Shown: in pieces, positions 20,239 to 45,490 of the stretch
How positions within the stretch are numbered: position 1 is the stretch's first letter
Layout: each line of letters opens with the position of its first letter
Origin: Alphaproteobacteria bacterium
GTDB lineage: Bacteria > Pseudomonadota > Alphaproteobacteria > RF32 > CAG-239
Length of the DNA stretch: 49,462 nt
Direction: 5' to 3'
NCBI GenBank assembly: GCA_045126755.1
Contig: JBGVOY010000139.1
Location: 1 to 49,462 of the forward strand
Made by a program: the position numbers and the translations under genes
The notes under the pieces: generated by a model
The model's database searches: none
What the model saw: only the letters and a program-made list of their open reading frames with translations
Told to the model about the DNA's origin: nothing

Positions 20239-22803
20239 TTATACACATTGACCAAGTCTGAAACTACCTGTTTCATCGTCTTTAACACATTTTAATACAA
20301 ACGACTTTCCTAATGCGGCACAATCTGTTTCAGTATCATCATAATCACACGTTGTTGCGCACTTCGTCGGATAAGACTGACCACCACACTCAACATAGTT
20401 TGTAGCAAATCCTCCCGTGCTTGCACATCCCTCAACCGTTACGCGATTGTAGATTGGTGATTTATTACCTGCACAGTCTGTCCCTGTGGCATCACAAGAC
20501 GCATAGTAATAACATCCTTGTGGTGCTCCTGAAACCGAAACTTGATAATTTCCATTAGCAAGTTTTGTTTCAAACAATGTTGATTTATTGGTTAAAGAGC
20601 AGCCATCAGTTGCATAAGGGCAAGGAGAAACGTTAATATATGTGCTATACAAACCACTTCCACATACTTTAACATCCGAACCTTCAGGAATTACTGTTTC
20701 AAGCACTGCTTCATACCCATCAGGAACAGTCACTTTATTATAACCGAACTTACTGCAATATGCTTCTGAACCACATTCTGCATAAAATGCACATTTTGTA
20801 GATGAATTTTTTGTTTCCGGAACTATACCCACCTCGACTTTTTTGTATTTAGACTTACCAGATTCGAAAACATAACAATTTTCATTACCGGTATATTCTG
20901 CGTTATTATATTGATCGCACGGGCTAGTTGCTTTTACACATTCTGTAGAACAATGAACCCAAGAACCATCATTTGAGGTATATAACTCATGACCTGAAGG
21001 ACATACTTCTTCATACAGCTTACCGCAACTATCTACAGCACCTTCAAAAAGCACTGCTCCGCCACCTTTACAATGATCTTGATTGCTAACTATAGATGTA
21101 AAATAGCCATATTGTTTAGCAAATCCGTCACAGCCTGTTTTTACATTTCCGGTAAATACATAGCTTCCTACCACATCACCTTTTTTCATACCGGCGGTAA
21201 TCTCATAAACATTACAAAGCGATTGTGAAGCGCTATCATTTTCGTTATTACACTTACAATTTGAAGCAAATGTTTTACCTCCGCAAGTAATTGAAGTGCC
21301 ATCATTTGCGTTAAGACATGTAGCCACCGGTAACCCCTTAACCGGAGAATATTTTCCTGCGCAGTCTGGCTCTTCGCTTTCGCAAGAATGAAGTCTGACA
21401 AGTTTTTCTTGTTCAGCATCAATCGGCTGACATTTTTCAACTTCATAATAACCGTTATTAAGATATGCCTGAGCATCAGCAGCAGTTAATACCAGTTCGC
21501 AAGAACCCTTATCGTTTCTGTAAGCTACATCACCTTTGTAAACACCGTAACACGTTTCTGCAACTTCACATGTTTGGTAAAATGTTCCTTTAGAGTTAAC
21601 ACAAACATCTCCTTTACCATACAAACCTTCACTGCAAGAAACATATCCTTGGCAAGTATTTTCAACACAAGATTTACCATCAGAGGATAATTTGTACCCC
21701 GGTTTACATCCTGCTACGGCATAGCAACCTAAACTGTTGGAAGCACACATCGCATTTGAAAAACTGCTCTGACAATCTGCTAATGTTTTGTACTCACACT
21801 CTAAACATAATTTAGCTGCAGAATCAAAAGGACAAGCAACATAGTTATCCGAACAAACCGTGTCAATATAACCCAGTTCGGCACAAATTTCATCATTTTG
21901 TTTCTCGCATAATTGTTCATAATCAAAATATCCGTCGATACAGGTGCAATTATTACCGCAGAAACCGCCTAAATTATCACCGATACCCATAACTGAAGAC
22001 TGGCAACTGATTAAAGGATCATTTCCTATAAATGAATATTGTGAGTCAGAACAACCATTGACACAGCTTGATTTATTTTCTTGATATGTTACACCGCACT
22101 TACATTCTAACGTAATGGCATTAAGATTGTCGTAGCATTTGTATTGCATAACATTGTTAGGTTGACTTGTGCAGTTATCATCAACGCCGACACAACAATC
22201 ATCAGCATCGGAAACCCAGTTATTTTTACCGGTTGCCGGACATATACATTGAGCATACCAATCGCCATCGGCATCGGTACACTTACCGCTTCCGGTTGCA
22301 TTATCACCGCATTTGTAATACCTGTCTCTGTTACATTTACACTCTTTATACTTGCCGCCACAAGAAACACCGACGCCTACCAATCCGTCAGCGGCAGAGC
22401 ATTCTTTATTATAGGAAGAATCGCAAACACATTTACCCTGCTGACATGTTGTCTGGTCTTCACCTTCAGCATTTGTACCGCTACAAGTTGCTCCGGTACA
22501 TACATAACCTAAGCTTTCATCACATGGAACCCAATAGTTTGTATTGGAACAGCAATCTTCCGGCTTGTATAATTCTATACCGCCTTCTTTACATGTATCG
22601 GCAGAACTGGGGGGAGTATCACAGAATGTATAACCCGGACAGTTGGTAAACGGAGCGAAATTGTTGCCTAAACATGCGTCATCCAGTATACCGTCACCGT
22701 CAAAATCATTACCGCCGCCTAAAAAACACACTCTAGCTTGAGAAACAGCACTTAAACACAGCACGAAACCCAAAATTAAAATTGACAGCTTAAACTTATT
22801 CAT
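20239..22803 (-). CDS. Large secreted cysteine-rich protein (854 aa, about 10% Cys), unknown family
   Basis: I prefer the ATG at 22803 (GGGGG SD 6 nt upstream), giving signal peptide MNKFKLSILILGFVLCLSAVSQA. My manual count is about 83 Cys. Recurrent CGG(K/Q)x(Y/F)xxxCxC-type motifs: SCGGKYKECKC, TCGGKTFASNCKC, ECGGQSYPTKCATTC. Confidence 0.7.
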   Translation of the reverse strand: MNKFKLSILILGFVLCLSAVSQARVCFLGGGNDFDGDGILDDACLGNNFAPFTNCPGYTFCDTPPSSADTCKEGGIELYKPEDCCSNTNYWVPCDESLGYVCTGATCSGTNAEGEDQTTCQQGKCVCDSSYNKECSAADGLVGVGVSCGGKYKECKCNRDRYYKCGDNATGSGKCTDADGDWYAQCICPATGKNNWVSDADDCCVGVDDNCTSQPNNVMQYKCYDNLNAITLECKCGVTYQENKSSCVNGCSDSQYSFIGNDPLISCQSSVMGIGDNLGGFCGNNCTCIDGYFDYEQLCEKQNDEICAELGYIDTVCSDNYVACPFDSAAKLCLECEYKTLADCQSSFSNAMCASNSLGCYAVAGCKPGYKLSSDGKSCVENTCQGYVSCSEGLYGKGDVCVNSKGTFYQTCEVAETCYGVYKGDVAYRNDKGSCELVLTAADAQAYLNNGYYEVEKCQPIDAEQEKLVRLHSCESEEPDCAGKYSPVKGLPVATCLNANDGTSITCGGKTFASNCKCNNENDSASQSLCNVYEITAGMKKGDVVGSYVFTGNVKTGCDGFAKQYGYFTSIVSNQDHCKGGGAVLFEGAVDSCGKLYEEVCPSGHELYTSNDGSWVHCSTECVKATSPCDQYNNAEYTGNENCYVFESGKSKYKKVEVGIVPETKNSSTKCAFYAECGSEAYCSKFGYNKVTVPDGYEAVLETVIPEGSDVKVCGSGLYSTYINVSPCPYATDGCSLTNKSTLFETKLANGNYQVSVSGAPQGCYYYASCDATGTDCAGNKSPIYNRVTVEGCASTGGFATNYVECGGQSYPTKCATTCDYDDTETDCAALGKSFVLKCVKDDETGSFRLGQCV

Positions 22804-22893
22804 AATAACCCCCATAGGTAAATAGACCTTACTTGTAAATATTTTATCAAATAAAGTTATAATTGTCAACGAAGCTTTTTGTTTTTTTTAAAA

Positions 22894-25664: not shown

Positions 25665-26633
25665 CTAGGTAACTTCAGTAATTGCACGCAAGTTACCATC
25701 ACGATTGATTTGAACAACCCTTAATTTATGGCGCATTTCCTCAATCGTTTTTACTCTGTCAATAGTAGGATATGTGTGCAAAATACGGTCTGTAAATGCC
25801 TGATATGCAGCTTCTGAACTTTCAGCGTGAATTGTTGCCAAGCAGTTATCGTGACCTGAACCCATCAACTCCCATAATGCACCGGCATTAGATGTTGAAA
25901 TCTCACCTCCGATAATGGCATCAGGTGTAAAACGAACCACCAAGTCAATAATTTTTGCATAATCCATTTCGTTAGTTTGCTCGGTACGAGATAATGTTAA
26001 ATGCACTCTGTTCGGATGCGGAACCAAAAGTTCTCGGGTATCCTCTATGGTAAGCACTCTTTTATGAATATCTAAAATTTTTAACAAGTTATTCAAAAAA
26101 GTTGTTTTACCGGTTGAGGTTGCACCACTTACCAAAATATGATCGCCCCTTTTTATACTCAATAACAATCTTTCATACGGATCTTCAGGATCTTTAATAT
26201 CTTTCAGTGGGTTTATCTTATGCAAAGCTTTTCCTTGTGTTAATCCGTAATCGGATAATCCGAATGCAACGTCATCACTGTGAATACGAATTGTTAAAGC
26301 AACACCGCCTGTTAAATCATCATTATCATACATAACGTTACGGCCTGCAATCGCCGAAAAACGGTGGTCTCCCGGTATAGTTGCATAAACAACCGGAGAA
26401 CCTTGAACAGGGTCAAACGGAAGTTCGTATGTATTTGCAATAATATACAGCAAATCTGTTAAATATTCTTTGGAAAGTTTTTCATCTTTATACATTACCC
26501 ACGGATATGCTCTCTTGCCGCGTAGCCTTAACCATATCTGCCCTGCTTTATTGATGGCTACTTCCTCAATATTTTCCTGATTATACCAATATGATAATGG
26601 CCGTAAAACTGATTCTAATACCGTAAAACTCAT
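25665..26633 (-). CDS. virB11: T4SS ATPase VirB11
   Basis: 322 aa. N-terminal ...EEVAINKAGQIWLRL, Walker A SGATSTGKTTFLN, Asp box LTIEDTRE, His box GHDNCLATIHA. Last gene of the operon. Confidence 0.9.
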   Translation of the reverse strand: MSFTVLESVLRPLSYWYNQENIEEVAINKAGQIWLRLRGKRAYPWVMYKDEKLSKEYLTDLLYIIANTYELPFDPVQGSPVVYATIPGDHRFSAIAGRNVMYDNDDLTGGVALTIRIHSDDVAFGLSDYGLTQGKALHKINPLKDIKDPEDPYERLLLSIKRGDHILVSGATSTGKTTFLNNLLKILDIHKRVLTIEDTRELLVPHPNRVHLTLSRTEQTNEMDYAKIIDLVVRFTPDAIIGGEISTSNAGALWELMGSGHDNCLATIHAESSEAAYQAFTDRILHTYPTIDRVKTIEEMRHKLRVVQINRDGNLRAITEVT

Positions 26634-26644
26634 ATCTTTATCCT

Positions 26645-29600
26645 TTAGAATAATGCTCCGGATTGTTGGTTATATGTCGATGCCGTAGCGCCTGTTGACG
26701 GAGGCGGAGGTGGTGCTCCGTTGTATATCGGAGCACTTCTTGAAGGCGTCTTTTTCTTAGCCGGAGCTTCATCGATTAAACCACCTGACGGTTGAGCCTT
26801 TTCATCTTCGGCACCCATTACGTGAACGGAACCGCCTCCTGAATTTGCCTTATCATCGCCATCTTTACCTTGAACATTACCTTCTCTACCGTTAATCAAG
26901 ACACCGGAAGGATCATCTGATTCCTTTTCATCTTCCAATTCACGGGCAGGTGTTCTTATCCATAAATCTACTTTCGGATATATTATAATACGTGTTCCGG
27001 CAGGCACATAAGCAACTGCAGAAATATCTGTTTTATCTTTCAATATCTGTTGGAAAATATTGTTCATACCGTCAACAAAGTTATCTCTGGCTTCTTCTGC
27101 AGCCTGAGCTTTAGCATTTTGAACAGAGTTACCGTTTGAATCGGTTGTCGTTTCACCTGCTGCTGCTACATAAGTAATTGCACTTGTAAGAGATGTGGTA
27201 ACAAGAGGCAACGTGTATTTCTTAAGTAATTGTTCATCAATATAGCCAAGAGCTCCTGATTTACCTTGAGCATCACCCGTAACCGCATTGGCAAACTGGA
27301 ATGCGGAGCCATCGGGCCTTATCAAACGCTCCCAAGTAATACTTACCCTTACGGAACTTCCGGAGCTTCCGCCTCCAAATCCGCCCATAGAGCCCATTAC
27401 CCGGCTTCCTGCAGGAATTACTATATTTCTGCCGACTTCCGCATAAATATTTCTTTCAACGATAGCCGTAACAGGAACGCCATCGGCTCCTGACATAATT
27501 GTTCTTGCCAGCACTGCAGGAATAGGTTTATCGGCTAATATCATTTCGCTCATATCAACACGCCAAGAAGATATATCTCGAGCTACACCTTCCCAGTGCG
27601 TAGCCGTGCCGTCATACGATTCTTTATTTATTTTTGTAGATACTTTACTAACCGAAAACTCTTCTCGGCGTAAATTGTGCGCAGCACTGATTCCGTATGC
27701 GCGAATAGGATCATATCTTTCACCGGGACCATATCCGCCTCCGGGGCCTAAATTACTTACCTTATTACCTTCTCCGTATGCTTCGCCGGCACCCATAACA
27801 CCCGCCGGAACAAACATTGTTTCGGCAGAAGTTTTTTTAATTTCTTCCACTCCGGCCAATTCTCCGTAGTTATCTATAATAAGTCCGTCATTAGTTCTTT
27901 TACCTATAACGTTTCCGTTTACGTCGATAACATCATTGTTTTCTAAAATATTACCCAGAAAATTCCCATCAGGGTTAATAGCAATACCTATCACTTGCAT
28001 TTTTTTATCTTTTACTTGAGGTTCTTCTGTTATTTGTTCGGGAATTTCAATTTCACCAACCTGAATCTGTTCCTCTTCTTCAACATTTTTAGGTTTTTTA
28101 ATTATAATCGGTTTTCTTGTATTGTAATATTGCAAATAACGTGCTTTTGCCAATAATTTTCCGTTTTCATCTCTAACTTCACCGCTTCCGGATACTTTAC
28201 CTGCAACTGCATATTCGTTATCAACGACATCTCCGTCTATTAAGAGTTCTCCTATTACTTTATTATTTTTATCGCGAATAAAATAGTCTCTTGAACCACG
28301 TCCGATTATTTCATAATTCTTGTTTACCAAAAATCCTCTATCGGCTGTTCCGAGCGTTGTGCCGGCAAACGATGTTACGGAACCTGCCTTTGTAAGATAA
28401 CCGATAGCAAAATTATCTTTATCATATACGTAAACATCGTATAAAGCATATCCCAATTCTTTTCTTCCGGAAACTACCAATCCGTCGTAATTTACTTTTG
28501 CCAATACTTCATTTTTATCGTTAACAACTTCAGCCTTCTGGTTAACTCTACCCATAAAATTATTTTCGTTATCAAAAGCAAAACGATATTTAAAAGCAAC
28601 ACCTAATATTTTTTCGGCATCTTCAGATACGACCGTTCCGTCAGGTCTTACATATCCTATAACTTCGGAATTTTCATTTATAACCTTACCCGTTGTTAAT
28701 ATTCTGCCGATAATAACATTCTTAAAATTCATTACCGGTCCGGGTTCAACAACAGAAGCCTGAAAAACATTATCGTCGTTATATAAACGGCCATCCGATT
28801 TAACACAGCCCAAATCACGATTTTGATAGTCAATAGCTCTGCTTACACCATTGATGTTTGCAATAAGTTTTCCGTCAAAGTTAATCAATGAGCCTTTTTT
28901 AGGAGCAAAACCAACCATTGTTCCTACATCACTGATAACTTGATTGTTTGCTAATATCTTGCCTAAAACAACATCTCTGCCGTTTCGCACATCGCCTTTA
29001 GGGCTTACAACACCGATATATTCGCATACATTATTCACAACACTGTTAAAATCAGCCGTTTGACCGATAACGGAACCGTCGATTCCGCTGACTAAATTAT
29101 TGCTGATAGCTTTACCTATGATATTTCCGGCATAATTTTTTACTTCTCCGTTATGTTCCGCATAACCTAACATATTACCGTTAAAACCGATTACCATAAA
29201 TGCCCTGCCTATATTACCCGATACAGGCATCATATTTTCTGATACAGACTGAGTAGTTTCCACAACATCATATTCCGGAACTATTTTTGCCGTTATATTA
29301 CCTTTTCCATCCGTAATAAAATTGTTTTGCGCCAAAAACGGCATAATTTTACTGTCTAGCCCTATTGCATAATAAATATCGGATAATTGAGTTGAATATA
29401 TGTTATTATCAGCATCAATAACTTCTCCATGCTGTGTAATTTTTAAACCCAATTCTGTCGGAACACCGTTTATTTTTCCATCAATACCCACATATCCTTT
29501 AGGCATACCTGCCTGTGTATATGTATCGGATAATTCCAGTGTATTACCAATCAGCACGCTATCTGAAGAAAAAACATATCCGAAAGGAGATACTTTATAA

Positions 29601-30841
29601 CTGACATTCGCAGATGAAAAATCTGCCCCTGTTCCTTTAAGCCCGAGAACATCATTTGATGTTGTAATAATCAATGATGTATCTGCTCCGGCTCCCAATA
29701 TTCTGCCTATATTATCATAAACATAGTTTCCTTTTGTGTAGCCCATAAGTGTTCCCGACATAGAAATCGCAGAGCCGTTACTAAGCGCCATAGCAGTTAA
29801 ATTACCTAAGTAGTCAAAAACAGGACCAGTATATGATAATTGTCCCACAATTTTTCCGGTATTATCATAAACCATGGCTCTTGGCCCTACATAGCCTATG
29901 ATATCCTCTGAGCGAGCGACTTTACCTTCGGGCATAATTCGGCCTAAATATTTACCGTTAAAATCATTTGCAGTTGCTGCTATATCAACAAAAAAACCGA
30001 TAACTTCGTTGTTTGCATTTACTATTTTATTATCAGCACGAAGCCTGCCCACAACATTACCCTGATTTATAACTTCTCCGTTGTATGTTATAAGACCTAA
30101 ATAATTACCTACATTATCAAATGCGTATCCGCTAATTACCGTCCTTCCGATAACTTTATCGGTATTATCATACACATATCCGTTTGCGTGAACACTACCT
30201 ATAGTTTTAGTATCAAAATCGGTTACTTTGCCGCCGGGGGCGATACTACCTATAAATTCTCCCGTTGAAGATACTACCATTTTAGATGAAATTAAACGTC
30301 CGTCCAGAGTATATCTGCTTCCGCTGTTTTTATAAGCATACCCTGACGGAGATACAAAACCTATGTTCTGTCCGTCTATACTGACATATAAACCATCACC
30401 GGTCAAACGTCCCACCGTTTTTCCCGAATCATTATAAACTAAGCCCGGATATAAGACAGAACCTAAAATATTATATGAGTCATCTACAACCAAAGCATTA
30501 GGAAGTGTCTTACCTATTATTTTTCCAGAAGGTAAGCGAACCGTTCCGTCATTGTTTACTTTTCCCAACAATTTATTGTCATTTCCTATAACAACACCTT
30601 GAGGAACAACACCACCTATTATGTTACCTTCCGTATTGACTATAAAACTGTCTGCCGTAACGTTTCCGATTATTTGATTATCAAGCCCTACAACAGAACC
30701 ATCCGGTATAACCTTTCCGATAACTTTACCGTTAAAATCTATGGCAGTTATTTCGTTTGCGTAAACATACTTTGCCGTAACAATCATTACGGTTAATAAA
30801 ACTAAAAAAGCTCTAAATATTTTATTTAATGTTTTTTGCAC
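26645..30841 (-). CDS. virB10: Giant VirB10 (1398 aa): signal-like N-terminus, about 870 aa of 17-residue repeats, TrbI/VirB10 core, Pro-rich C-terminal tail
   Basis: The C-terminal ~220 aa match the VirB10/TrbI core pattern: DKPIPAVLARTIMSGADGVPVTAIVERNIYAEVGRNIVIPAGSRVMGS...ITWERLIRPDGSAFQFANAVTGDAQGKSGALGYIDEQL...VPAGTRIIIYPKVDLW. GTG start 1 nt after the upstream stop. Sits in the position virB9-X-virB10-virB11. Confidence 0.85.
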   Translation of the reverse strand: MQKTLNKIFRAFLVLLTVMIVTAKYVYANEITAIDFNGKVIGKVIPDGSVVGLDNQIIGNVTADSFIVNTEGNIIGGVVPQGVVIGNDNKLLGKVNNDGTVRLPSGKIIGKTLPNALVVDDSYNILGSVLYPGLVYNDSGKTVGRLTGDGLYVSIDGQNIGFVSPSGYAYKNSGSRYTLDGRLISSKMVVSSTGEFIGSIAPGGKVTDFDTKTIGSVHANGYVYDNTDKVIGRTVISGYAFDNVGNYLGLITYNGEVINQGNVVGRLRADNKIVNANNEVIGFFVDIAATANDFNGKYLGRIMPEGKVARSEDIIGYVGPRAMVYDNTGKIVGQLSYTGPVFDYLGNLTAMALSNGSAISMSGTLMGYTKGNYVYDNIGRILGAGADTSLIITTSNDVLGLKGTGADFSSANVSYKVSPFGYVFSSDSVLIGNTLELSDTYTQAGMPKGYVGIDGKINGVPTELGLKITQHGEVIDADNNIYSTQLSDIYYAIGLDSKIMPFLAQNNFITDGKGNITAKIVPEYDVVETTQSVSENMMPVSGNIGRAFMVIGFNGNMLGYAEHNGEVKNYAGNIIGKAISNNLVSGIDGSVIGQTADFNSVVNNVCEYIGVVSPKGDVRNGRDVVLGKILANNQVISDVGTMVGFAPKKGSLINFDGKLIANINGVSRAIDYQNRDLGCVKSDGRLYNDDNVFQASVVEPGPVMNFKNVIIGRILTTGKVINENSEVIGYVRPDGTVVSEDAEKILGVAFKYRFAFDNENNFMGRVNQKAEVVNDKNEVLAKVNYDGLVVSGRKELGYALYDVYVYDKDNFAIGYLTKAGSVTSFAGTTLGTADRGFLVNKNYEIIGRGSRDYFIRDKNNKVIGELLIDGDVVDNEYAVAGKVSGSGEVRDENGKLLAKARYLQYYNTRKPIIIKKPKNVEEEEQIQVGEIEIPEQITEEPQVKDKKMQVIGIAINPDGNFLGNILENNDVIDVNGNVIGKRTNDGLIIDNYGELAGVEEIKKTSAETMFVPAGVMGAGEAYGEGNKVSNLGPGGGYGPGERYDPIRAYGISAAHNLRREEFSVSKVSTKINKESYDGTATHWEGVARDISSWRVDMSEMILADKPIPAVLARTIMSGADGVPVTAIVERNIYAEVGRNIVIPAGSRVMGSMGGFGGGSSGSSVRVSITWERLIRPDGSAFQFANAVTGDAQGKSGALGYIDEQLLKKYTLPLVTTSLTSAITYVAAAGETTTDSNGNSVQNAKAQAAEEARDNFVDGMNNIFQQILKDKTDISAVAYVPAGTRIIIYPKVDLWIRTPARELEDEKESDDPSGVLINGREGNVQGKDGDDKANSGGGSVHVMGAEDEKAQPSGGLIDEAPAKKKTPSRSAPIYNGAPPPPPSTGATASTYNQQSGALF
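28150..30750 (-). repeat. Coding repeat array in virB10 (about 51-bp / 17-aa period, degenerate)
   Basis: Recurrent x-D-G-x-V-V-x-x-x-G-N-I-I-G-x-V units, e.g. GKVIGKVIPDGSVVGLDNQIIGNVTADSFIVNTEGNIIGGV. Boundaries estimated by eye. Confidence 0.7.
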
Positions 30842-30842
30842 T

Positions 30843-33800
30843 TTAGTTCCTCCGATTTTGAGCTACTTCTTGTAAAGCATATCCCACAACTTGTTTATCT
30901 ATATTAACAAACGAGCCGTTACTTTTCAAATATCCTATTTCTTTTCCGCTTGAACCTATAACTTTACCATCTGATGATAAATATCCTAAATATTGACCAT
31001 CGCTTGATAATACTGCCGTTCCGATTTTAAATATCTGCCCGATAATATTGTTCTGATTATCTATAGCTAAACCGCCGGAAAGTGTTCTGCCTATTATACT
31101 GTTATCCGACGATCTGATACTTCCGTCAAATGCAACAAATCCGGCTACTTTATCCTGATTATCAATCACGATATCACCGCTTACAACTTCACCGATAATT
31201 TTACCGTCAGTGCTGCTTACTTTACCGTCTGAATGAACATTTCCGATTATTACGTTTTTAGTGTTTATAACAGCTCCTTCCGGAAGAACCGAACCGATTA
31301 CGTTACCGCCAAAATCAACCACCGTTCCACGTTTTAATACACTCAAATTTTTATCGGTAGAGCCTCCGGGTAAAACAAAAGTAACAAGACGCCCTTTCAA
31401 ATCTGAAACCTCGCCTCTTTCATTTGTATAACCCTTGTATGCGCCGAACAAATCTATAACCGTATTTTGTTCTGTTTGTTCACCCAATATTTTACCGGTT
31501 TTATCCAAAATTAAACCGTTTAACGCATATAAAGCAACTTCTTGACCGAGATCTGTCAGCACTCTTCCTGACGGAGTTACATATCCGAGATATGAACCGT
31601 CATAACCTATTGCCGCACCCGTTTTCACAACGGAACCTACATATTTCCCTTTATCATTAAACCAACGCCCTTGTGTATCGACTGTTCCCAAATCATCCCC
31701 AAATCGATTAACCACACGGCCGTCAAAGTTTACAAAACCTTGCGCATTACCGTTTATATCGGTAACATATCCGGTCGGCATCATTTTACCTGCAATAGCG
31801 CCATAAAAGCTTAATCCGTCGCCATATATTTTATCAACCGGCATTCCGCTATTGTCATAAACTTTTCCGTCAGCAAATATTCTGCCGATTTCTTCGCCGG
31901 ATGAGTTTATTATCCTATTAAATTCAGGTAAAGCTACTCCGATAATGCGGTTATTTTCGCTAACTATATATCTGTGAAGCAACAATTTTGCTCCGGGATA
32001 ATCTTTCAGTGTAAATGTTCCGTCAGACTTAAACGTAGTAAGCAAATTACCTTTCATATCAAACACATAAAAGTTATTGTTGATTTTTCCCAGATATTTA
32101 CCTTCGGAACTATAAATTTCTTTATCTTCGGACACACAACCTACTCCGTTGCCGTTTGATGCTACCACTTGTCCGTAAGGTGATACAGTGCCTAATTTTA
32201 TACCGTTTGCCATATATCCCGTTTTATACTCTGCGACATATCCGATAACATCACCTTGTTCATTTAACACCGTGCCATCCGGATTAGTGCAACCGACATA
32301 ACTTCTGTTATTGCTTACAACGCCTTGTTCGTTGGCATAACCTAAATAATTACATTTATTATCAAATACCCTACCCGTCTTAACCGGATGCCCGACATAT
32401 TTTCCCATAGCATCGTATATTCCGCCGTCAAGACGTATTCTATATGGTAGAACCTGATTATCTTTTACTATTTTACCGGTTTTATCCAGTATACCAATGT
32501 TATTACATCCCCAACCTACTATAACTCCGCCGGACACTCCTTTTCCTATATATCTGGCCCCGCTTTTATCTTTTATCAATCCGTTGGGAAGTATTCTGCC
32601 GACAACTATACCTCTTTCAGATGTTACATCTCCGTTTTCGGCAATTATACCCATAACATCACCTGTAGGAGTAACGGGAACAAGCTCTGTTTTAACAACA
32701 CTTCCTATTGAAGATTTATCATAAACCACAACCCTTCCGTTTTCATCAACTCTGCCGATAATATTTCCCTGCCCGTCAACAGCATTGCCGTTTCCGTCGA
32801 CGTATCCGACTACATTTCCGTTTTCATCAACAATTACATTCACATAATCACCGGCTTTACCTATAACTCTTCCTGCTGCATCGACAATCGTTCCGTCTTC
32901 TTGCATTTTACCGATTACATTGCCCGCAAAATCGATTACGTTACCGTTTTCATCCACATACCCGATTACATTTCCGTTATTATCATAAGCAAGACGTCTG
33001 GAATCTCCTATTTTACCGTTTGTTGCAACAATACTACCGTCTTCTTTGGCATGTCCGATAACTTTGCCGTTAGAAGACACTACATCTTTTTCATGATTAA
33101 CATATCCGATTACATTTCCGTTTTCATCAACTGCGACATCAGCACTTCCGCCCAATTTAGCATAGATTATTCCGTCAGCCCCAATCAGAGTGCCGTCTTC
33201 TTGTATTTGTCCCAGAAGTGTGCCATCCATATTGAATATACTTCCGTCTTCTTGCATTCTGCCTAAAAGTGTTCCGTCAGCATTTAAAACTGCTTTTTCT
33301 TCACTAACATTACCGATTTCTTTACCGCTTTTATCGACAACAGTTCCATCCGGTAAGGCCATCCCTATCAGCTTACCGTTTTCGTCAACGACCGTCCCGT
33401 CAGGCAAGGCCATTCCTACCAACTTACCGCTTTCATCATAAACTAAATTATTTTCACTAATGGTCCCCATTAGCTTACCGTCTGCGCCGACTAAATCTTT
33501 TTCACCAAAAACTTTTCCTTCTACATTTCCATTTGCATCAACAACGGAATTCTTTTCATATTTTTTACCGATTATGTTACCGTCTACATCGACAACAGTG
33601 CCGTCTTTATTTGCTTTATACAATAAATTACCGGTTTTATCAACCACTTCTCCGTCTTTAGTTTTTGCACCGATGAAATTGCCGTTTGCATCAAAAACAG
33701 CTTTATCCGTACTTTTTTTACCTACAATATTACCATTTTTATCTATAAGATTACCTTCAGCATCGGTCTGATACAATTTGTTGTGATTTAAGTCTACTAT

Positions 33801-35639
33801 TGTTCCGTCAGGTAAGGCCATTCCTATTAACTTACCTTCATTGTCATAAACAGGTTTGCTTTCACCAACTTTACCTATTACATTACCGTTTGCATCGACA
33901 ACAGTTCCGTCAGGCATAGCTTTTCCGATTACATTACCGTTTTCATCAACAACCGTTCCGTCAGGAAGAACTCGTCCTATAACATTACCGTTTTCATCAT
34001 AAACTAATTTTTCTTCGCCGACAAAACCAAGCGAACTTCCATCTTCATTATAGAGGACGTTTCCATCGCCTAACACACCTAAAACATTGCCGTTTTCATC
34101 AACGTATGTTTCATTTTCGACAACGCTGCCTATTAACTGTCCGTCAAAAGTAAGCGCATTACCGGTTTCATCGATATAACCGATAACTTTACCGTCATCA
34201 TCATAGACAAGTTTTTTCTCTTCACCTATGCGACCGATTTGTTTTTCGGATAGAGCAAAAGCTTCACCGTTTTCATCGACATAACCTACAATGTTTCCGT
34301 TTTCATCAACGATGGAATTGTCCGGCATCACTACACCTAAAACATTTCCTTCATCATCTGTTACCGTGCGTCCTGATTTGCTGACGAAACCGATTACATT
34401 GCCGTTCATATCGACAACTTCACCGTTTTCATTTAATCTGCCTAAAACATTGCCTTCAAAATCAACAACTGTTCCGTCATCTAAGACACGTCCTATAACG
34501 TTACCGTTTTCATCATACACAAAACCGGCGTCGACCGCTTTACCGATTACATTACCGTTTTCATCAACAACTGTTCCGTCAGGAAGAACTTTACCTATAA
34601 CATTTCCTTCAAAATCAATAGCTTTTCCATCGGGTGTAACATAACCGATAATATTTCCGCTTTCATCGAAAATAAGTTTTTTGTTACCGGCAACACCTAT
34701 AATATTTCCGTCTTTATCGACAACCAACCCGTCAGCATTCACGCGTCCGATAATATTACCGTCTTCATCACGCACATAACCTTCATCATCGATATATCCC
34801 AAAACTTTACCGTCAGGACCATAAGCAACTCTCAGCTTTGAAGTATCTGCCTGAACTTTACCGACGACATTACCGTTTTCATCTATTACGTTGCCGTTTG
34901 CATCTATTGTGCCTATGACGTTACCGTTTTCATCAACCGCTTTACCATCTGCCGTAACTCTGCCTATGATGGCACCTTCGCTATTTTTAATAACTTTTTC
35001 ACCTGCAGATGAAGCCCCTGCTCCTGAAGAAGTTTCGCAATAGTTACAGTCTTCTTTTACTACGGCTCTTCCTTCTACCGGAACTTTTTGAGCTTTTGCA
35101 TTGGCAGCACTGACATTTGTTTCGTGCCAAGATACAATGTAATTGTTTTGAACATTACCTGAAACAACCGGCGCCCATTTCATTGTTACGTTACAGGTTT
35201 GATTACCTCTTAACTCGGCTCCTGTACACTCATCAACAAAAGTAAAACCGTCAAAAGGAGGTTCAGCCAGCTTAACCGACACAATTCGTATAGACGCTTT
35301 GCCGTTTGTTCCTATTGTCAAAACATTTATAGCTTCAGTTCCTAAAACAACTTGCCCCATATTTATCGGATCGGGAGTAGTTGTTATAGGGATTTCTTGT
35401 TCAACAACATCGTCAAATTCTATTCCGTTCATCAGAGGAGATGTATCCTCCTCTATTCCCAAAACATCATCATCTTCGGTAAACACAACTTCTTGCTGTT
35501 CTATCATGCCCGAACCGCTTGAAAACAATAAAATAAGTCCGAACAAAAACACTACAAACGAGGTTATACCGACAATTAAGATGATACGGTTTGTCTTACG
35601 AACATAACGTTCCGATGATGTTAAAACTTCTTTGCTCAT
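30843..35639 (-). CDS. Giant T4SS-embedded repeat protein (1598 aa): cytoplasmic tail, TM anchor, beta-sandwich-like domain, about 1380 aa of 17-residue repeats; no named family
   Basis: N-terminus ...RKTNRIILIVGITSFVVFLFGLILLF (TM). Residues ~85-175, MGQVVLGTEAINVLTIGTNGKASIRIVSVKLAEPPFDGFTFVDECTGAELRGNQTCNVTMKWAPVVSGN, follow the ASH/HYDIN ('choice-of-anchor D') beta-sandwich pattern. Repeats of IGKVLPDGTVVDENGNV run from there to the C-terminus. ATGA overlap with the virB9 stop. Confidence 0.8.
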   Translation of the reverse strand: MSKEVLTSSERYVRKTNRIILIVGITSFVVFLFGLILLFSSGSGMIEQQEVVFTEDDDVLGIEEDTSPLMNGIEFDDVVEQEIPITTTPDPINMGQVVLGTEAINVLTIGTNGKASIRIVSVKLAEPPFDGFTFVDECTGAELRGNQTCNVTMKWAPVVSGNVQNNYIVSWHETNVSAANAKAQKVPVEGRAVVKEDCNYCETSSGAGASSAGEKVIKNSEGAIIGRVTADGKAVDENGNVIGTIDANGNVIDENGNVVGKVQADTSKLRVAYGPDGKVLGYIDDEGYVRDEDGNIIGRVNADGLVVDKDGNIIGVAGNKKLIFDESGNIIGYVTPDGKAIDFEGNVIGKVLPDGTVVDENGNVIGKAVDAGFVYDENGNVIGRVLDDGTVVDFEGNVLGRLNENGEVVDMNGNVIGFVSKSGRTVTDDEGNVLGVVMPDNSIVDENGNIVGYVDENGEAFALSEKQIGRIGEEKKLVYDDDGKVIGYIDETGNALTFDGQLIGSVVENETYVDENGNVLGVLGDGNVLYNEDGSSLGFVGEEKLVYDENGNVIGRVLPDGTVVDENGNVIGKAMPDGTVVDANGNVIGKVGESKPVYDNEGKLIGMALPDGTIVDLNHNKLYQTDAEGNLIDKNGNIVGKKSTDKAVFDANGNFIGAKTKDGEVVDKTGNLLYKANKDGTVVDVDGNIIGKKYEKNSVVDANGNVEGKVFGEKDLVGADGKLMGTISENNLVYDESGKLVGMALPDGTVVDENGKLIGMALPDGTVVDKSGKEIGNVSEEKAVLNADGTLLGRMQEDGSIFNMDGTLLGQIQEDGTLIGADGIIYAKLGGSADVAVDENGNVIGYVNHEKDVVSSNGKVIGHAKEDGSIVATNGKIGDSRRLAYDNNGNVIGYVDENGNVIDFAGNVIGKMQEDGTIVDAAGRVIGKAGDYVNVIVDENGNVVGYVDGNGNAVDGQGNIIGRVDENGRVVVYDKSSIGSVVKTELVPVTPTGDVMGIIAENGDVTSERGIVVGRILPNGLIKDKSGARYIGKGVSGGVIVGWGCNNIGILDKTGKIVKDNQVLPYRIRLDGGIYDAMGKYVGHPVKTGRVFDNKCNYLGYANEQGVVSNNRSYVGCTNPDGTVLNEQGDVIGYVAEYKTGYMANGIKLGTVSPYGQVVASNGNGVGCVSEDKEIYSSEGKYLGKINNNFYVFDMKGNLLTTFKSDGTFTLKDYPGAKLLLHRYIVSENNRIIGVALPEFNRIINSSGEEIGRIFADGKVYDNSGMPVDKIYGDGLSFYGAIAGKMMPTGYVTDINGNAQGFVNFDGRVVNRFGDDLGTVDTQGRWFNDKGKYVGSVVKTGAAIGYDGSYLGYVTPSGRVLTDLGQEVALYALNGLILDKTGKILGEQTEQNTVIDLFGAYKGYTNERGEVSDLKGRLVTFVLPGGSTDKNLSVLKRGTVVDFGGNVIGSVLPEGAVINTKNVIIGNVHSDGKVSSTDGKIIGEVVSGDIVIDNQDKVAGFVAFDGSIRSSDNSIIGRTLSGGLAIDNQNNIIGQIFKIGTAVLSSDGQYLGYLSSDGKVIGSSGKEIGYLKSNGSFVNIDKQVVGYALQEVAQNRRN
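30870..35003 (-). repeat. Coding repeat array (51-bp / 17-aa period, roughly 80 units by length)
   Basis: Spacing between successive (I/V/L)G dipeptides is 17 aa in the regular stretches, e.g. IGYVTPDGKAIDFEGNV|IGKVLPDGTVVDENGNV|IGKAVDAGFVYDENGNV. The C-terminal third is more degenerate. Confidence 0.75.
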
Positions 35640-37354
35640 TGCACTCTTACCACGCTACAGAATACCCCATTACGTCCCAAATGACCGCAAATTTCATCGC
35701 CGACATCTATTGATTGAACAGGACCTATTCTTAAATGGAACAACTCTTTGCCTTGTCCGTCGGCAGGTGCATCAACGGAATAAAACGGTTTATACTCACC
35801 TAAGATAGAATTATATCTGGTAGATAATTCATACCATAAATCTTCTAAGTTACTGACATTGGCATCTGTTCCCAATTCAACGGAAATACTTGCAGAATCT
35901 TCATTTTCGAAACCTTTACCGAAACGATATCCGTTTAAAGCTCCGTTATTTGCAAATCCTTGCATTAAAGCACTTTGTTTTGTATTGCCGCCCATTCCGG
36001 ATACAAAAGAGCCTGAAGCGTTACTATTATTTCCGCCCTTTGCATATTCCGGAATCAGCAATTCGCCGTTAGGTCCTAATTTTACCGTATATTCACCGAC
36101 TAAACTTTCCGAACCGCCACGAGATGATGCTAAATAACCATTTTGTGCATTATTCTGTGCGTTGGAAACATTTTCTGCTCCGGTGCCTAATGTTATTGAG
36201 CTGGAAATAGGGGCTACATTTACCGGAGCCGGTTCTTCTTTTTTGTTAATATCTATAAACTCAAAACCTTGAACAGAACTTTCTCCGCTTGGAGTTTTTC
36301 CGCCCGGAAATGCGAAAGGCACATCCCAGTCATTTGTTTCTGCCATAGGAGCAAACTCTGTTCCTTGGTCATCGGAACGGCGCAATTTCAAACAAACAAT
36401 TCTTTTACCGTTACGAAGAACCATATCACCGACACCTTCTACGATAATCAAACGATTATCCGGACCTGCCGTGCGGAAACCGACCGGAGTTTCAGCTCTT
36501 TCAACAATCAAAGTAACTATAGGTCTTTGCACCATACTTAAAGCTCTGTCACCGAAATCGATGTATGTAAAGATGTCATCACGCCACACTCTCTCCGGCG
36601 CTATAACAACATCATCGGGGTTTGGAACATATACTTCAACATCAAAACGCAACTTTGTCGGATCAAGAGGAATGCTCTTAATCCAATCTTCTTTTTGATT
36701 TCTTTTTGTGAAAGTAGCGTCTACATTGTTTTTACTGCTTTTAACGGCTCCTCCGGATGTTCCCGTTCTGGAAGAACCGCCGGCCACTCCCGACATAGAG
36801 CCGTCTCCATTAACATCATCGACAACTTCGATATCTATCACTGAGTTTGTTAAACGCTCCGTATTAAAACTTTCACTCTTGGTGTAAAAAACATACTTAT
36901 TACCGGAACGACCGAAAACTATTATGTTTGTATCAAGACCGACTTTACCGCCCTGAGGATATAACAAAAGTGTATTCGGCCCCGAAATTTCAGCAGTAAA
37001 GTTTTTACTGTCACCGATATAAACATCTTCTAAAAGTTCCCATTCAGGAAAGTTTATCAAAGTAAGCATTCCTTCTCTTAAACGAACAGGCAACACCAAA
37101 TCAGGCGACCAATAATATTTTGAATAAGCAGGCTTAGTCTGTCCTTCACCCAAATTTTGCAAAGGATCTAACCACGCACTTTGAGTCATACCTATTGACC
37201 CAAATCCTAAATAATCTAAATTTTGAGGCGCATATACACCCTGCTGATTATTAGCCACACTGTCAAGGCTATCAATAGTAGCCTGAGCATTCGCACCGGT
37301 GGCGGTTAAAACCAACGCCATAACAGAGAATATTTTAGTCGCTATATTTTTCAT
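35636..37354 (-). CDS. virB9: VirB9 (572 aa) with Gly/Ser/Asn-rich linkers and a SPOR-like C-terminal domain
   Basis: Signal peptide MKNIATKIFSVMALVLTATGANA. VirB9 NTD pattern (LVLPVRLREGMLTLINFPEWELLEDVYIGDSKNF...TNIIVFGRSGNKYVFY) and CTD pattern (PERVWRDDIFTYIDFGDRALSMVQRPIVTL...GFRTAGPDNRLIIVEGVGDMVLRNGKRIVCL). For the tail, see findings. Confidence 0.85.
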   Translation of the reverse strand: MKNIATKIFSVMALVLTATGANAQATIDSLDSVANNQQGVYAPQNLDYLGFGSIGMTQSAWLDPLQNLGEGQTKPAYSKYYWSPDLVLPVRLREGMLTLINFPEWELLEDVYIGDSKNFTAEISGPNTLLLYPQGGKVGLDTNIIVFGRSGNKYVFYTKSESFNTERLTNSVIDIEVVDDVNGDGSMSGVAGGSSRTGTSGGAVKSSKNNVDATFTKRNQKEDWIKSIPLDPTKLRFDVEVYVPNPDDVVIAPERVWRDDIFTYIDFGDRALSMVQRPIVTLIVERAETPVGFRTAGPDNRLIIVEGVGDMVLRNGKRIVCLKLRRSDDQGTEFAPMAETNDWDVPFAFPGGKTPSGESSVQGFEFIDINKKEEPAPVNVAPISSSITLGTGAENVSNAQNNAQNGYLASSRGGSESLVGEYTVKLGPNGELLIPEYAKGGNNSNASGSFVSGMGGNTKQSALMQGFANNGALNGYRFGKGFENEDSASISVELGTDANVSNLEDLWYELSTRYNSILGEYKPFYSVDAPADGQGKELFHLRIGPVQSIDVGDEICGHLGRNGVFCSVVRVQ

Positions 37355-37369
37355 TTTACATTACACCTT

Positions 37370-38119
37370 TTATTCTGGTTTATTACGAGAAACATTATAT
37401 CTGCCAACGGTAAAACCTATCGGATTATTAAGTCTTTCGCCATATTTAACATTTTTCTTGCGGTAACCTACTCGTAATGACACCGTCCAATATTCCACTT
37501 TAGGCGCAGGAGATGACGGATACATATCTCTTGTTTCGTATTCAACTTGCCATATACCATTACCGAGATCGTTAACTGTCATAATTCTGACAGAACGTAC
37601 CAAACCTTTCTTTTTAATAGTATCCAAAGCCTTTTTTGCCGTTTTTTCAATAAATGTCTGATACACTGCAGATGTTGACATCTCTTGTATCGGACCACCC
37701 GGAAGCCAACGAGATTCCATTTCTTTGACATTACTTGAAAAAGCACTACGCAGAAGCACATATTCACGAACAAACGTTTCCGTTATTTCTTTTCTGCTTT
37801 CCATATTTGAAAGAGGCTGAATATTGTATACCTGTTCTTGCTTATTTTCAAAAGTCAATATAAACGACTCAAGACGATATAAAGGTAAAAGCTGTCCTAT
37901 TGCCAACATAAGAACAATATTACAACATAAGCTCACGGCAACAACTACGGCAAACGCACGTGCTGTCCACAAATATCTGCGTTCACCCGCATTGACGATA
38001 ACATCATCATTATCTCTTCTGCCTGCAGGTGCATTTGCCCTTCTGATATTTTGACGGGGGGCACCTTGGCGACCTGCTATCAACCTTTGCTGTGTATTAT
38101 TGCCTAAGCGTTCAACCAT
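37370..38119 (-). CDS. virB8: VirB8 (copy 2, Arg-rich N-terminal tail)
   Basis: 249 aa. Bitopic: TM AFAVVVAVSLCCNIVLMLAIGQL. Periplasmic NTF2-like domain with ...FVREYVLLRSAF... and the signature NNPIGFTVGRY near the C-terminus. Confidence 0.85.
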   Translation of the reverse strand: MVERLGNNTQQRLIAGRQGAPRQNIRRANAPAGRRDNDDVIVNAGERRYLWTARAFAVVVAVSLCCNIVLMLAIGQLLPLYRLESFILTFENKQEQVYNIQPLSNMESRKEITETFVREYVLLRSAFSSNVKEMESRWLPGGPIQEMSTSAVYQTFIEKTAKKALDTIKKKGLVRSVRIMTVNDLGNGIWQVEYETRDMYPSSPAPKVEYWTVSLRVGYRKKNVKYGERLNNPIGFTVGRYNVSRNKPE

Positions 38120-38126: not shown

Positions 38127-38315
38127 CTATATTGTTGCTACAAACCAATCAGGAAGTGTGTGCGGAAGTTCAACTTCAATACATGCACACGGCGATAATT
38201 TAAGTTCGTTTACATCTTTACCAATACCCACAGGTTCCGGTTCATAATATGTACCGAACATACCACACGCAGATAAAAGTATAAGTGCAATCAATAAAAT
38301 TATTTTTTTATACAT
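38127..38315 (-). CDS. virB7: VirB7-like small lipoprotein
   Basis: 62 aa. Lipobox LLSAC. Additional Cys (SPCAC). Located between the two virB8 genes and 7 nt upstream of virB8 copy 2. Assigned by size, lipobox and position only. Confidence 0.5.
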   Translation of the reverse strand: MYKKIILLIALILLSACGMFGTYYEPEPVGIGKDVNELKLSPCACIEVELPHTLPDWFVATI

Positions 38316-38464: not shown

Positions 38465-39223
38465 TTAAAGAATTTCAACTTCTGTTTGAGAATATTTAGT
38501 AACCGTAAATCCCAACGGATTCATCAAACGTCTGGATAAAAAATACCTTTCAGGTATAAACGATGCTATCATAGACACAGTCCAATACCTTGTTACAAGC
38601 ACCATTTCGCCTGTTGTTTCATTACGATTCGAAGGTGATAAGTCATAAGTCTTAAAGTCAACTTTCCATAACGGAGATTTTTCTCCTCCGACCTTTCCGA
38701 CAGATATAATATCTACTTCACGTGAAATTTTATCTTTATACAGTTGTTGCAATTTTTGCTCACCGTCCTTAAAAAACTCATTAAAGACAGGTATCGAAGA
38801 TAAATATGAAACCATACCGCCGGCATACCATCTGGTTTGCATCTCTTTTGTATCGTATATAACCGTATTGCGCAAAATAACATATTGCCGTATAAAAAGC
38901 TCCATCATTTGTCTTGAAGACGGCATATCCGTTGATATGGCTTCATATCTTATCATTTCGTCTGAGTTATCTTGCTTGATTATCAAAAACGGCTCTACAT
39001 GAACTTCAGGCGCAAGCTTAAACAACACTAAAGAAGCACTGGTAAAAAACATCAAAGATAACATAGCCAAAAAAGCCATAAATCTTGATAACCAGCAATA
39101 GTAGTGTTCTCTGGCCGATGTTTTGCGAACATAGGTATCGGTTATATAATTTAACTCCACCCTTCTGTTTTGTTCATCGGTTATTGACAACGGTCTGTTA
39201 GTTGCGCCTAATTGATTATTCAT
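38465..39223 (-). CDS. virB8: VirB8 (copy 1)
   Basis: 252 aa. TM FMAFLAMLSLMFFTSASLVLF. Contains FIRQYVILRNTV and MNPLGFTVTKY. AAGGAG SD. Confidence 0.85.
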   Translation of the reverse strand: MNNQLGATNRPLSITDEQNRRVELNYITDTYVRKTSAREHYYCWLSRFMAFLAMLSLMFFTSASLVLFKLAPEVHVEPFLIIKQDNSDEMIRYEAISTDMPSSRQMMELFIRQYVILRNTVIYDTKEMQTRWYAGGMVSYLSSIPVFNEFFKDGEQKLQQLYKDKISREVDIISVGKVGGEKSPLWKVDFKTYDLSPSNRNETTGEMVLVTRYWTVSMIASFIPERYFLSRRLMNPLGFTVTKYSQTEVEIL

Positions 39224-43540: not shown

Positions 43541-43551
43541 AATACACCTCA

Positions 43552-44766: not shown

Positions 44767-45479
44767 TATTCATCTCCTTCGCCATCTTTATTGACATAGT
44801 TCTGAATCTCAACCATATATTTTTGTGATAAAATGTAGGCCTGAGTTTCTAAAATAGTGTTCAAACGCTTAGCTGAAGCAAGGTTTAAATCTTTTGCCGC
44901 TTCCTGAACTCTTTCAACCGTGCTTAAATCAGGTTCTTCGGTTTCTTCTTCTAAAAGCTCTTTCCTTTTAAGAAGCGAGCGAGCAAACAATACTCCCGAA
45001 TTTTTAAGTTTTGCCTTATTTATTTGCTTATTCATTTCTTTTTGAGTTGCAATATTGTCAAGTCCTCCGGCTTGTCTGTTATGGCTTTCTTTGACCTTAT
45101 TCATTCGTTCGACTTCAATTTCGGGGTTATTAGGATTATCAGCCTCTGTATTTTGTAAAAATGACATTGTAAATGTTTTTAATACACCGGCAGGATCATT
45201 TTGTATATCTTCTATTTTTTCTTTTAGTGATTTTGCGCCGGATTCAATTTTTTCAACTCCATCCTTTGCTTTACCGTATATATCACGTCCGGTAAGAGCC
45301 AAACTTTTCACCTTTTCGGCTGCTGCCGCTATATCTTGTATCTGTTTTCCCCATTGTCCGGGTAACGATACTGCATACTGAACAACTGTGTTAATAGGTT
45401 CAATATCTGCCTTGGCCGGATATGAAAACAACATCAGGCTAAGAAACAGAACCGTATATTTTGTTATATTTCGTTCCAT
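44766..45479 (-). CDS. Secreted helical protein (237 aa), VirB5-sized
   Basis: Signal peptide ...LFSYPAKA, then a helical, coiled-coil-like sequence. Size and position (after virB4) fit VirB5/TrbJ-type minor pilus proteins. I see no decisive motif. Confidence 0.6.
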   Translation of the reverse strand: MERNITKYTVLFLSLMLFSYPAKADIEPINTVVQYAVSLPGQWGKQIQDIAAAAEKVKSLALTGRDIYGKAKDGVEKIESGAKSLKEKIEDIQNDPAGVLKTFTMSFLQNTEADNPNNPEIEVERMNKVKESHNRQAGGLDNIATQKEMNKQINKAKLKNSGVLFARSLLKRKELLEEETEEPDLSTVERVQEAAKDLNLASAKRLNTILETQAYILSQKYMVEIQNYVNKDGEGDE

Positions 45480-45490
45480 AGCCGTATTCC

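Follow-up and report, generated by a model that had tools for sequence, protein, structure and literature searches.

In its canonical form VirB10 is expected to extend between the inner and the outer membrane (PMC9371333). The locus described here raises the question of what becomes of this arrangement when the gene for VirB10 encodes a C-terminal barrel, a very long array of short repeats and, at the start of the chain, an apparent signal peptide. The window, that is, the whole stretch of DNA that was analysed, is a contig of 49,462 nucleotides (nt) from an alphaproteobacterium of the RF32 lineage (GTDB CAG-239; contig JBGVOY010000139.1 of assembly GCA_045126755.1). Within a type IV secretion system (T4SS) cluster it contains an open reading frame (ORF) for a VirB10 homologue of 1398 amino acids (aa), directly preceded by an ORF of 1598 aa. 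We consider it fairly probable, taken as a whole, that a single giant VirB10 was divided into these two ORFs and that its halves come together again.

The VirB10 open reading frame

A reading of this DNA made from its letters alone (below, the sequence-only reading) had described an ORF with a VirB10 core and about 870 aa of repeats, and both the ORF and its domains were found as stated. Structures were modelled by AlphaFold2 with 42 orthologues in two overlapping segments, aa 25–720 and aa 700–1398; local confidence is given as the predicted local distance difference test score (pLDDT). The parts of the ORF are as follows.

26645–30841, minus strand: VirB10 ORF, 1398 aa; stop codon at 26645–26647, GTG start codon at 30839–30841
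30758–30841, minus strand: predicted Sec signal peptide, aa 1–28; predicted cleavage after VYA and before NEITAIDF
28127–30757, minus strand: hairpin array of the Pfam beta-flower type, ~51 × 17 residues, aa 29 to ~905
27998–28126, minus strand: flexible linker rich in acidic residues and Lys, aa 906–948; pLDDT 32–48, with 27% identity and 13% gaps among orthologues
27842–27997, minus strand: basal module of three hairpins, aa 949–1000, with near-invariant Gly; kept in nearly all family members aligned, pLDDT ~78–86
27542–27841, minus strand: Gly-rich pre-barrel segment, aa 1001–1100 (NLGPGGGxGPGERYDP and a helix), with invariant columns G1032–D1044
26963–27541, minus strand: VirB10/TrbI beta-barrel domain, aa 1101–1293 (PF03743)
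27026–27229, minus strand: helix-loop-helix in the barrel, aa ~1205–1272, at the position of the outer-membrane antenna
26648–26962, minus strand: disordered C-terminal tail, aa 1294–1398, with conserved short motifs; pLDDT ~30

The barrel is recognized by the TrbI profile PF03743 (aa 1101–1293, E-value 5e-29, 101.8 bits against a cut-off of 35), whose span of nt 26963–27541 agrees with the core placed from the letters at approximately nt 26950–27610. The best NCBIfam models for the protein were ComB10 and VirB10, both below their equivalog cut-offs. Among PDB sequences, the C-terminal 448 aa are closest to Helicobacter pylori ComB10 (2bhv, E-value 3.7e-23), with weaker matches to CagY, Xanthomonas VirB10 and TraF of pKM101. 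A Foldseek search with the C-terminal model returned CagY, VirB10, TrwE, TraF and ComB10 (probability 1.00), and the DotG dome as well. Profile, PDB and Foldseek matches thus bear out the assignment of this domain to VirB10. Candidate antenna helices are predicted at aa ~1205–1226 and 1243–1272, in a region with pLDDT of 40–60 that is crossed by the ComB10 alignment.

The sequence-only reading had recognized VirB10 in only the last ~330 aa, which was too narrow: the C-terminal part conserved in the family comprises ~450 aa and includes the three hairpins of the basal module and the Gly-rich segment. The helix of this segment lies at residues 346–362 of the model of aa 700–1398, and we infer that the segment corresponds to the I-layer arm of canonical VirB10. 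The acidic and Lys-rich linker noticed earlier is present (KKPKNVEEEE...VKDKK at aa 915–947), modelled as disordered and poorly conserved. Likewise, the ~100-aa low-complexity tail was found at aa 1294–1398 (G 13%, P 10.5%, A 10.5%), ending in ...PPPPPSTGATASTYNQQSGALF; its description as Pro-rich amounts to a single PPPPPS run, which does lie in the tail. Conserved tail motifs include two (V/P)LIDD-like elements, VVY, PPPPS and a terminal hydrophobic pair (..LF). In the family alignment L1397 is invariant and F1398 at least 90% conserved, and across loci the VirB10 proteins end in LF, LL, LI or MF.

No Pro-rich region was found between the anchor and barrel positions, where the protein has hairpin repeats (G 13%, V 11%, N 9%). 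Nor was the inner-membrane anchor of VirB10 found on the 1398-aa chain, whose N-terminus is of the signal-peptide type; it is the upstream ORF that encodes the anchor. The gene lies between virB9 and virB11 in a virB-type operon, and related loci keep this order. Barrel and gene context place the 1398-aa protein in the VirB10 family; two canonical features of the family, a proline-rich region and an anchor carried by this chain itself, are absent.

Autocorrelation of aa 28–900 gave 17, 34 and 51 as the top three lags, with nothing comparable in aa 1001–1398; the earlier count of ~870 aa of 17-residue repeats is matched by 873 aa, or ~51 hairpins. The Pfam model PF21785 ('5-fold beta-flower') matches the protein in seven stretches with 149.9 bits (cut-off 38) and PF21784 with 36.1 bits (cut-off 25). 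On the 1598-aa neighbour, PF21785 reaches 365.6 bits over 15 stretches, and PF21784 and PF12396 (DUF3659) match as well, the latter with 144.7 bits against 24.8. The link to DUF3659 suggested earlier thus holds for the neighbour and for most orthologues, on which PF12396 is precomputed, as it is present on the unsplit giants described below, whereas the 1398-aa protein itself shows no PF12396 match at E ≤ 0.01 and belongs with the related PF21785 and PF21784. Similarly, the RHS_repeat and YD models match the 1598-aa protein, while RHS_repeat gave no match on the 1398-aa protein.

The model of aa 25–720 has a mean pLDDT of 91.3 and a predicted template modelling (pTM) score of 0.89, and consists of a regular alternation of 5-residue and 3–4-residue strands joined by 4–5-residue turns; in the second model, pLDDT exceeds 90 for the repeats as far as aa 909. 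The repeats, described earlier as beta-rich and lying in the periplasmic position of a VirB10 homologue, are accordingly modelled as all-beta and rigid. Compared with the PDB by Foldseek, the repeat model matches the YD shells of Rhs proteins, teneurins and Tc toxins only locally (E-value 1e-23, TM-score 0.08–0.11, root-mean-square deviation (rmsd) ~29 Å), although the TM-score could be depressed by drift in register where 17-residue repeats are compared with longer ones. Of the YD/Rhs comparison suggested earlier there remains, then, a local resemblance, shared by the profile matches of the neighbour; the global fold is no Rhs shell. Against the viral library, tail fibres and MORN repeats were returned with low probability. 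No super-period of four, five or six hairpins (68, 85 or 102 residues) stood out in the profile autocorrelation. As modelled, the hairpin unit is YD-like or beta-flower-like, and the array is rigid.

To see how widely this architecture occurs, genomes were scanned with one genome per species, and 329 genomes with a relative were found, of which the best 80 were examined. All of these, a few of them with binning mislabels, are metagenome-assembled genomes of gut, rumen or faecal Alphaproteobacteria (from humans, deer, goats, horses, chickens and others). In 78 of the 80 the VirB10 ORF is followed by VirB11 and, three ORFs truncated at a contig end aside, measures 1390–1570 aa. A full-length search gave 1085 proteins at E ≤ 1e-20; the best 120 of these metagenome matches are 1368–1767 aa long with the same Pfam content, and one of them is 99% identical and also 1398 aa long.

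Alignment of the 1398-aa protein to 60 orthologues gave mean identities of 61–78% for the repeats at aa 51–300, almost free of gaps, 51–85% for the barrel region, 27% for the linker and 22–37% for the tail. By this measure conservation is as high in the N-terminal repeats as in the barrel, and the repeat region, for which loss or frame disruption in orthologues had been considered, is intact and nearly gap-free in them. The hairpin region of 26645–30841 contains no tandem DNA repeat, the sole one in this ORF being a 24-nt array with a 9-nt period in the barrel region (27348–27371). Conservation by position, in a nearly gap-free alignment and without DNA repeats, indicates that each hairpin has its own conserved identity. 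The array is a stable structural one, unlike the recombining repeats of CagY.

Public gene calls for the family are unreliable, and many database entries are fragments starting inside the repeats. For example, in one related locus (L081, 4264–11302) a 1489-aa antisense ORF is called in place of the gene, where a frameshift is probable, and a 1394-aa orthologue carries the source name 'ribosomal protein L27' (among proteins P0071, P0113 and the short matches). Short homologues of 430–840 aa were considered as intermediate forms and rejected, as they begin inside the repeats and have neither signal peptide nor anchor. The short homologue region in L081 was likewise set aside as a mis-called or frameshifted giant gene.

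The N-terminus was compared among 55 distinct orthologue N-termini, to which the −3/−1 rules were applied by script. The residue at −1, before xEITA(I/V)(D/N)F, is A in 50 and S in five of them; that at −3 is A (38), V (13) or else G, S or L. The −3/−1 rule is thereby satisfied in all 55. An uncharged hydrophobic core of 8–18 aa is present in 51 (range in all, 5–21), and the mature N-terminus xEITA(I/V)(D/N)FNG is nearly invariant. Such an N-terminus looks like that of a signal peptidase I substrate rather than like the ~20-residue anchor of canonical VirB10.

The upstream half and its unsplit relatives

If the barrel half brings no anchor of its own, the ORF immediately upstream does. Its parts, together with the elements of the junction, are listed here.

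30843–35639, minus strand: upstream ORF, 1598 aa, the putative inner-membrane half of a split VirB10
35520–35639, minus strand: cytoplasmic N-terminus (SKEvLTxSErYVrKTNRIIL) and one transmembrane helix, aa 1–40, from the orthologue alignment; hydrophobic window at aa 15–33
35130–35387, minus strand: immunoglobulin-like (Ig-like) domain of the ASH or choice-of-anchor-D type, aa ~85–170 (NF012200, E-value 5.5e-4)
30846–34997, minus strand: hairpin array of ~80 repeats with period 17, aa 215–1598; conserved ends, variable middle
33869–33999, within 30843–35639: tandem DNA repeat of a 51-nt unit, 2.6 copies with 85% matches, in the variable middle
30849–30853, minus strand: GGAGG ribosome-binding site, within the NRRN codons that close the upstream ORF; 7 nt separate it from the GTG
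30843–30845, minus strand: TAA stop codon of the upstream ORF

In its Ig-like domain C138 and C149 are invariant, and PF15780 is precomputed on orthologue fragments of this ORF. The ORF lies directly upstream of the VirB10 gene in 76 of 76 loci, and together the two encode 2996 aa. Its product ranges from 1101 to 2446 aa among orthologues, which suggests that the variable middle expands and contracts: in an alignment of 68 orthologues, aa ~500–900 contain 48–72% gaps, while the N-terminal module and the last 700 aa (aa 901–1598) are gap-free and 40–67% identical. The last 34 aa are nearly invariant.

The two genes meet in the sequence ...AAT CGG AGG AAC TAA A GTG.... The upstream protein ends in ...SNGSFxxxDKxVxGYxLxEVAxNRRN in 75 of the 76 loci and in NQRN in the remaining one. 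GGAGG is intact in ~70 loci (the others have AGAGG, GGAGA or AGAAG), and the site lies 5–12 nt before the start codon. The location of this site inside the NRRN codons suggests the layout expected for translational coupling.

A common origin is indicated by proteins in which both ends are present on one chain. A word-based search with the N-terminus of the neighbour returned fragments only. A profile of its first 215 aa, built from 18 sequences, was searched against 1.84 billion representative proteins; many of the matches are unrelated proteins with tandem Ig-like domains, and ten proteins of 1498–2363 aa combine a match from position 1 at their own N-terminus with a TrbI core near the C-terminus. 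These unsplit giants have a single N-terminal hydrophobic helix, no internal hydrophobic segment and a 17-residue periodicity throughout; the C-terminal residues are LF, IF or MF in eight of the ten, and all four that were scanned with Pfam have both TrbI and beta-flower matches. By BLASTP, the first ~200–230 aa of the upstream ORF are 25–32% identical to their N-termini (E-values from 1e-14 to 3e-27), and their barrels are 39–52% identical to that of the 1398-aa protein. Each giant is found again, at unchanged length, on many independent contigs; one cluster, with a length of 2201 aa, has 141 members. When the last 120 aa of the neighbour are joined to the first 122 aa of mature VirB10, the alignment with the continuous hairpins of the giants runs from end to end; in BLAST mapping of the exact fission point, the repeat segments align in many registers.

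A neighbour-joining tree of the barrel (~230 residues), rooted on small anchored relatives of 611–823 aa, places all split forms in one clade nested within the paraphyletic unsplit giants. The anchor on the upstream ORF, the unsplit homologues and the nested clade together point to a giant VirB10 with gene fission, and we regard it as very probable that the two ORFs are the halves of one such protein. The small relatives (P0079–P0083) come from other uncultured lineages, one of them labelled Rickettsiales; they have a membrane anchor, an apparent Ig-like domain with Cys residues, judged by eye, and, ahead of the barrel, two or three hairpin-like repeats. A phmmer comparison of the neighbour's N-terminus with them was collinear but weak (16 bits). 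A small VirB10 of this type is a possible starting point for the hairpin expansion, and the simplest history suggested by these forms leads from a small VirB10 through hairpin expansion to a giant VirB10 and then to a single fission inside the array.

Proposed re-association of the halves and competing explanations

How could such a protein serve as a link between membranes? In the scenario that we propose, the periplasmic stretch between anchor and barrel was replaced in the ancestors by more than 100 hairpins of 17 residues, giving a VirB10 of ~1500–2400 aa, and the gene then broke inside the array in the clade of the window. The upstream ORF would have kept the cytoplasmic N-terminus, the transmembrane helix, the Ig-like domain and ~80 hairpins, and the downstream ORF would have acquired a start codon with a ribosome-binding site, as well as a Sec signal peptide. 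The halves would be translated together in a coupled manner; the outer half would be exported, lose its signal peptide and join VirB9 and a VirB7-like lipoprotein in the outer-membrane core. There its rigid N-terminal hairpins may bind to those at the conserved C-terminal end of the anchored half, for which the near-invariant last 34 aa and the gap-free aa 901–1598 offer candidate docking ends. Docking would restore the link from inner to outer membrane and create a large periplasmic scaffold, by analogy with the repeats of CagY and DotG. The variable middle of the upstream half might set the span, the linker at aa 906–948 might decouple the array from the core, and the conserved motifs and hydrophobic end of the tail might bind another subunit.

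The chances that the halves re-associate appear evenly balanced to us. Combined with the much firmer case for their origin, this makes the overall reading, split origin with re-association, the fairly probable one given at the outset. The fullest version, a two-piece VirB10 whose inner and outer halves re-associate through beta-flower-type arrays while a length-variable segment sets the span, is put forward tentatively, at somewhat less than even chances.

Several points weigh against the overall reading. Cleavage of the signal peptide rests on sequence rules, and an uncleaved signal anchor is an alternative. With a pTM of 0.89 for 696 residues, a compact or closed shape may be more apt than a long rod. 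For the barrel and antenna the monomer model is of low confidence (pLDDT 40–60), which we attribute to modelling the monomer apart from its ring. The tree is a simple neighbour-joining one of ~230 residues without support values. Finally, none of VirB6, VirB2, VirB3 and VirD4 was recognized in the window, whose end lies a short way upstream of VirB4.

The halves may also no longer act as one. The 1398-aa protein would then build a core without a link to the inner membrane, its array would have another task, for example the binding of peptidoglycan, lipid or cargo, and the upstream protein would be an accessory. The signal peptide, which removes the anchor from the 1398-aa protein, is in keeping with this; relatives of the beta-flowers carry cell-wall-binding or MORN-like annotations, and their clan includes the lipid-binding Tubby domains (PMC10584680). 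The end of VirB9 is weakly SPOR-like (E-value 0.2), and Legionella core complexes can assemble without DotG (PMC9371333). Separate functions are nevertheless unlikely, considering that adjacency, the coupled junction and the near-invariant ends at the break are kept in all 76 loci, and that, as the unsplit relatives show, the two arrays formerly made up one continuous body.

Alternatively, the repeats could be a contingency or antigenic-variation device, in which recombination switches secretion as in CagY, whose repeats do recombine (PMC5954226, PMC3585145). The upstream half would be suited to this by its variation between 1101 and 2446 aa and by its 51-nt tandem repeat at 33869–33999, the region's sole tandem DNA repeat of appreciable length. 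The hairpin region of the 1398-aa ORF has no such repeat, however, and its hairpins are fixed in position and almost gap-free across genera, in ORFs that stay within 1390–1570 aa. With the variable part confined to the upstream middle, at most that segment would be length-tunable, and we consider a switching device improbable.

A +1 ribosomal shift at AAC-UAA-A beside GGAGG, by which a single polypeptide would still be made, is more improbable again. Skipping the U of UAA does put the GTG ORF in frame, with a Shine-Dalgarno-like GGAGG just upstream of the slip site, an arrangement that we take to be superficially similar to the prfB frameshift site. The upstream stop codon, however, varies between TAA, TAG and TGA across loci, the stop-to-start distance between 1 and ~8 nt and the start codon between ATG, GTG and TTG, so that a fixed shift site is not conserved. 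In addition, AAC re-pairs poorly in the +1 frame, and in a fusion a conserved signal peptide, together with its cleavage site, would end up midway along a periplasmic protein. As for an artefact, by which one gene was wrongly broken or its repeats misassembled, repeat-rich genes are often misassembled and locus L081 has its probable frameshift and antisense call, but 76 independent species genomes share the break along with its stop codon, ribosome-binding site and signal peptide, and this, together with the independent 99%-identical copy of 1398 aa, rules out an artefact for practical purposes.

Gene neighbourhood, significance and known systems

The window is chromosomal, with dnaN, recF, several tRNA synthetase genes and mlaA/mlaC, and all genes of the T4SS cluster lie on the minus strand. 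Their order is VirB4; coiled-coil secreted proteins of 536, 237, 404 and 1437 aa; VirB8; a 62-aa lipoprotein; VirB8; VirB9/CagX; the 1598-aa ORF; the 1398-aa VirB10; and VirB11. The neighbours of the two halves are the following.

25665–26633, minus strand: VirB11, adjoining the VirB10 ORF downstream
35636–37354, minus strand: enlarged VirB9/CagX, 572 aa, ~2 times the canonical size
37370–38119 and 38465–39223, minus strand: two tandem VirB8 paralogues
38127–38315, minus strand: 62-aa ORF, flanked by the two VirB8 genes, whose product carries a lipoprotein signal (MYKKIILLIALILLSAC...)
39239–47101, minus strand: four consecutive ORFs of 1437, 404, 237 and 536 aa, between VirB4 and VirB8

VirB9/CagX has a C-terminal extension of ~250 aa whose end looks SPOR-like, as in peptidoglycan-binding proteins; the Pfam SPOR model matched this C-terminus only at the E-value of 0.2 mentioned above. 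Duplication of VirB8 is a trait of the Rickettsiales rvh system. The 62-aa ORF is probably a VirB7-like lipoprotein of the core complex, and a 65-aa ORF occupies the equivalent position in L081. All four ORFs at 39239–47101 begin with what resembles a signal peptide and contain long sequence that looks helical or coiled-coil, and none of them gave a significant Pfam match; they may be VirB5-like or system-specific parts. The 536-aa ORF has a Ser/Gly-rich low-complexity stretch and contains the motif SSSSSSGGMIDTA three times. Outside the cluster, an 876-aa ORF beside mlaC (20239–22869, minus strand) matched no family except for a weak cEGF hit.

VirB10 has been rebuilt in an order-level group of common uncultured gut and rumen Alphaproteobacteria, and relatives are present in at least 329 species genomes. 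As public calls are often truncated, antisense or misnamed, the system is easily missed in the annotation of gut metagenomes. VirB10 has been treated as the sole T4SS subunit that spans from inner to outer membrane, and it relays ATP-driven changes to the outer-membrane gate. If the two halves re-associate, they would provide a natural test of whether VirB10 must be covalently continuous to gate the outer-membrane pore, as well as a new route to large periplasmic structures like those of the Cag and Dot/Icm systems. If the proposal is true, the beta-flower/DUF3659 fold would also obtain its first cellular role. To our knowledge, no split VirB10 has been described; we found no paper that connects RF32 or gut Alphaproteobacteria, or beta-flower or DUF3659 proteins, with a T4SS, and the split layout with a signal peptide on the barrel half is described in no paper found.

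Among known proteins, the beta-flower and DUF3659 families (PF21784, PF21785 and PF12396; clan CL0395) are related to the arrays by scores far above the curated cut-offs and by the [DNEQ]xxG motif, which in beta-flowers marks the hairpin tip (PMC10584680). Beta-flowers as described are small closed barrels of 8–12 strands without a known function (PMC10584680) and occur singly, whereas here 50–120 unbroken hairpins are built into a secretion subunit. With the YD/Rhs shells of Rhs effectors, Tc toxin BC and teneurins the arrays share local hairpin geometry and a sequence pattern, but the global comparison gives a TM-score of ~0.1 and an rmsd of ~29 Å, and the period is 17 residues, while a YD repeat has roughly 20. 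No Rhs core or toxin domains were detected.

Among VirB10 proteins, ComB10, which belongs to the H. pylori ComB T4SS for DNA uptake, has the closest solved barrel by sequence and gives the best NCBIfam model, though below its cut-off; it is a small canonical VirB10 without repeats, and similarity of the barrel sequence says nothing about a shared substrate. DotG/IcmE of the Legionella Dot/Icm T4SS combines a VirB10-like C-terminus with a repeat-rich middle domain, and differs in being a single, membrane-anchored protein with another repeat family. The DotG repeats have a 10-residue motif, [KR]-x-A-G-[FY]-..., and the middle of the protein has been proposed to form a periplasmic 'collar' (bioRxiv 10.1101/2023.03.22.533729).

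The other near parallel besides DotG is CagY of the H. pylori Cag T4SS (1927 aa), in which a C-terminal VirB10 barrel also follows a very large repeat region on the periplasmic side, in an expanded T4SS that likewise has an enlarged VirB9, CagX (PMC9371333). CagY is one polypeptide, and its repeats arise from DNA-level repeats that recombine and tune its function (PMC5954226). In contrast, direct DNA repeats of this kind, recombining in frame, were not found in the hairpin region of 26645–30841, where the 17-residue hairpins belong to another family and are fixed. The 1927 aa of CagY compare with 2996 aa for the two halves together and with up to 2363 aa for the unsplit relatives. The system thus differs from CagY and DotG in four respects: the repeat family, the stability of the repeats, the size, and the split with a signal peptide on the barrel half.

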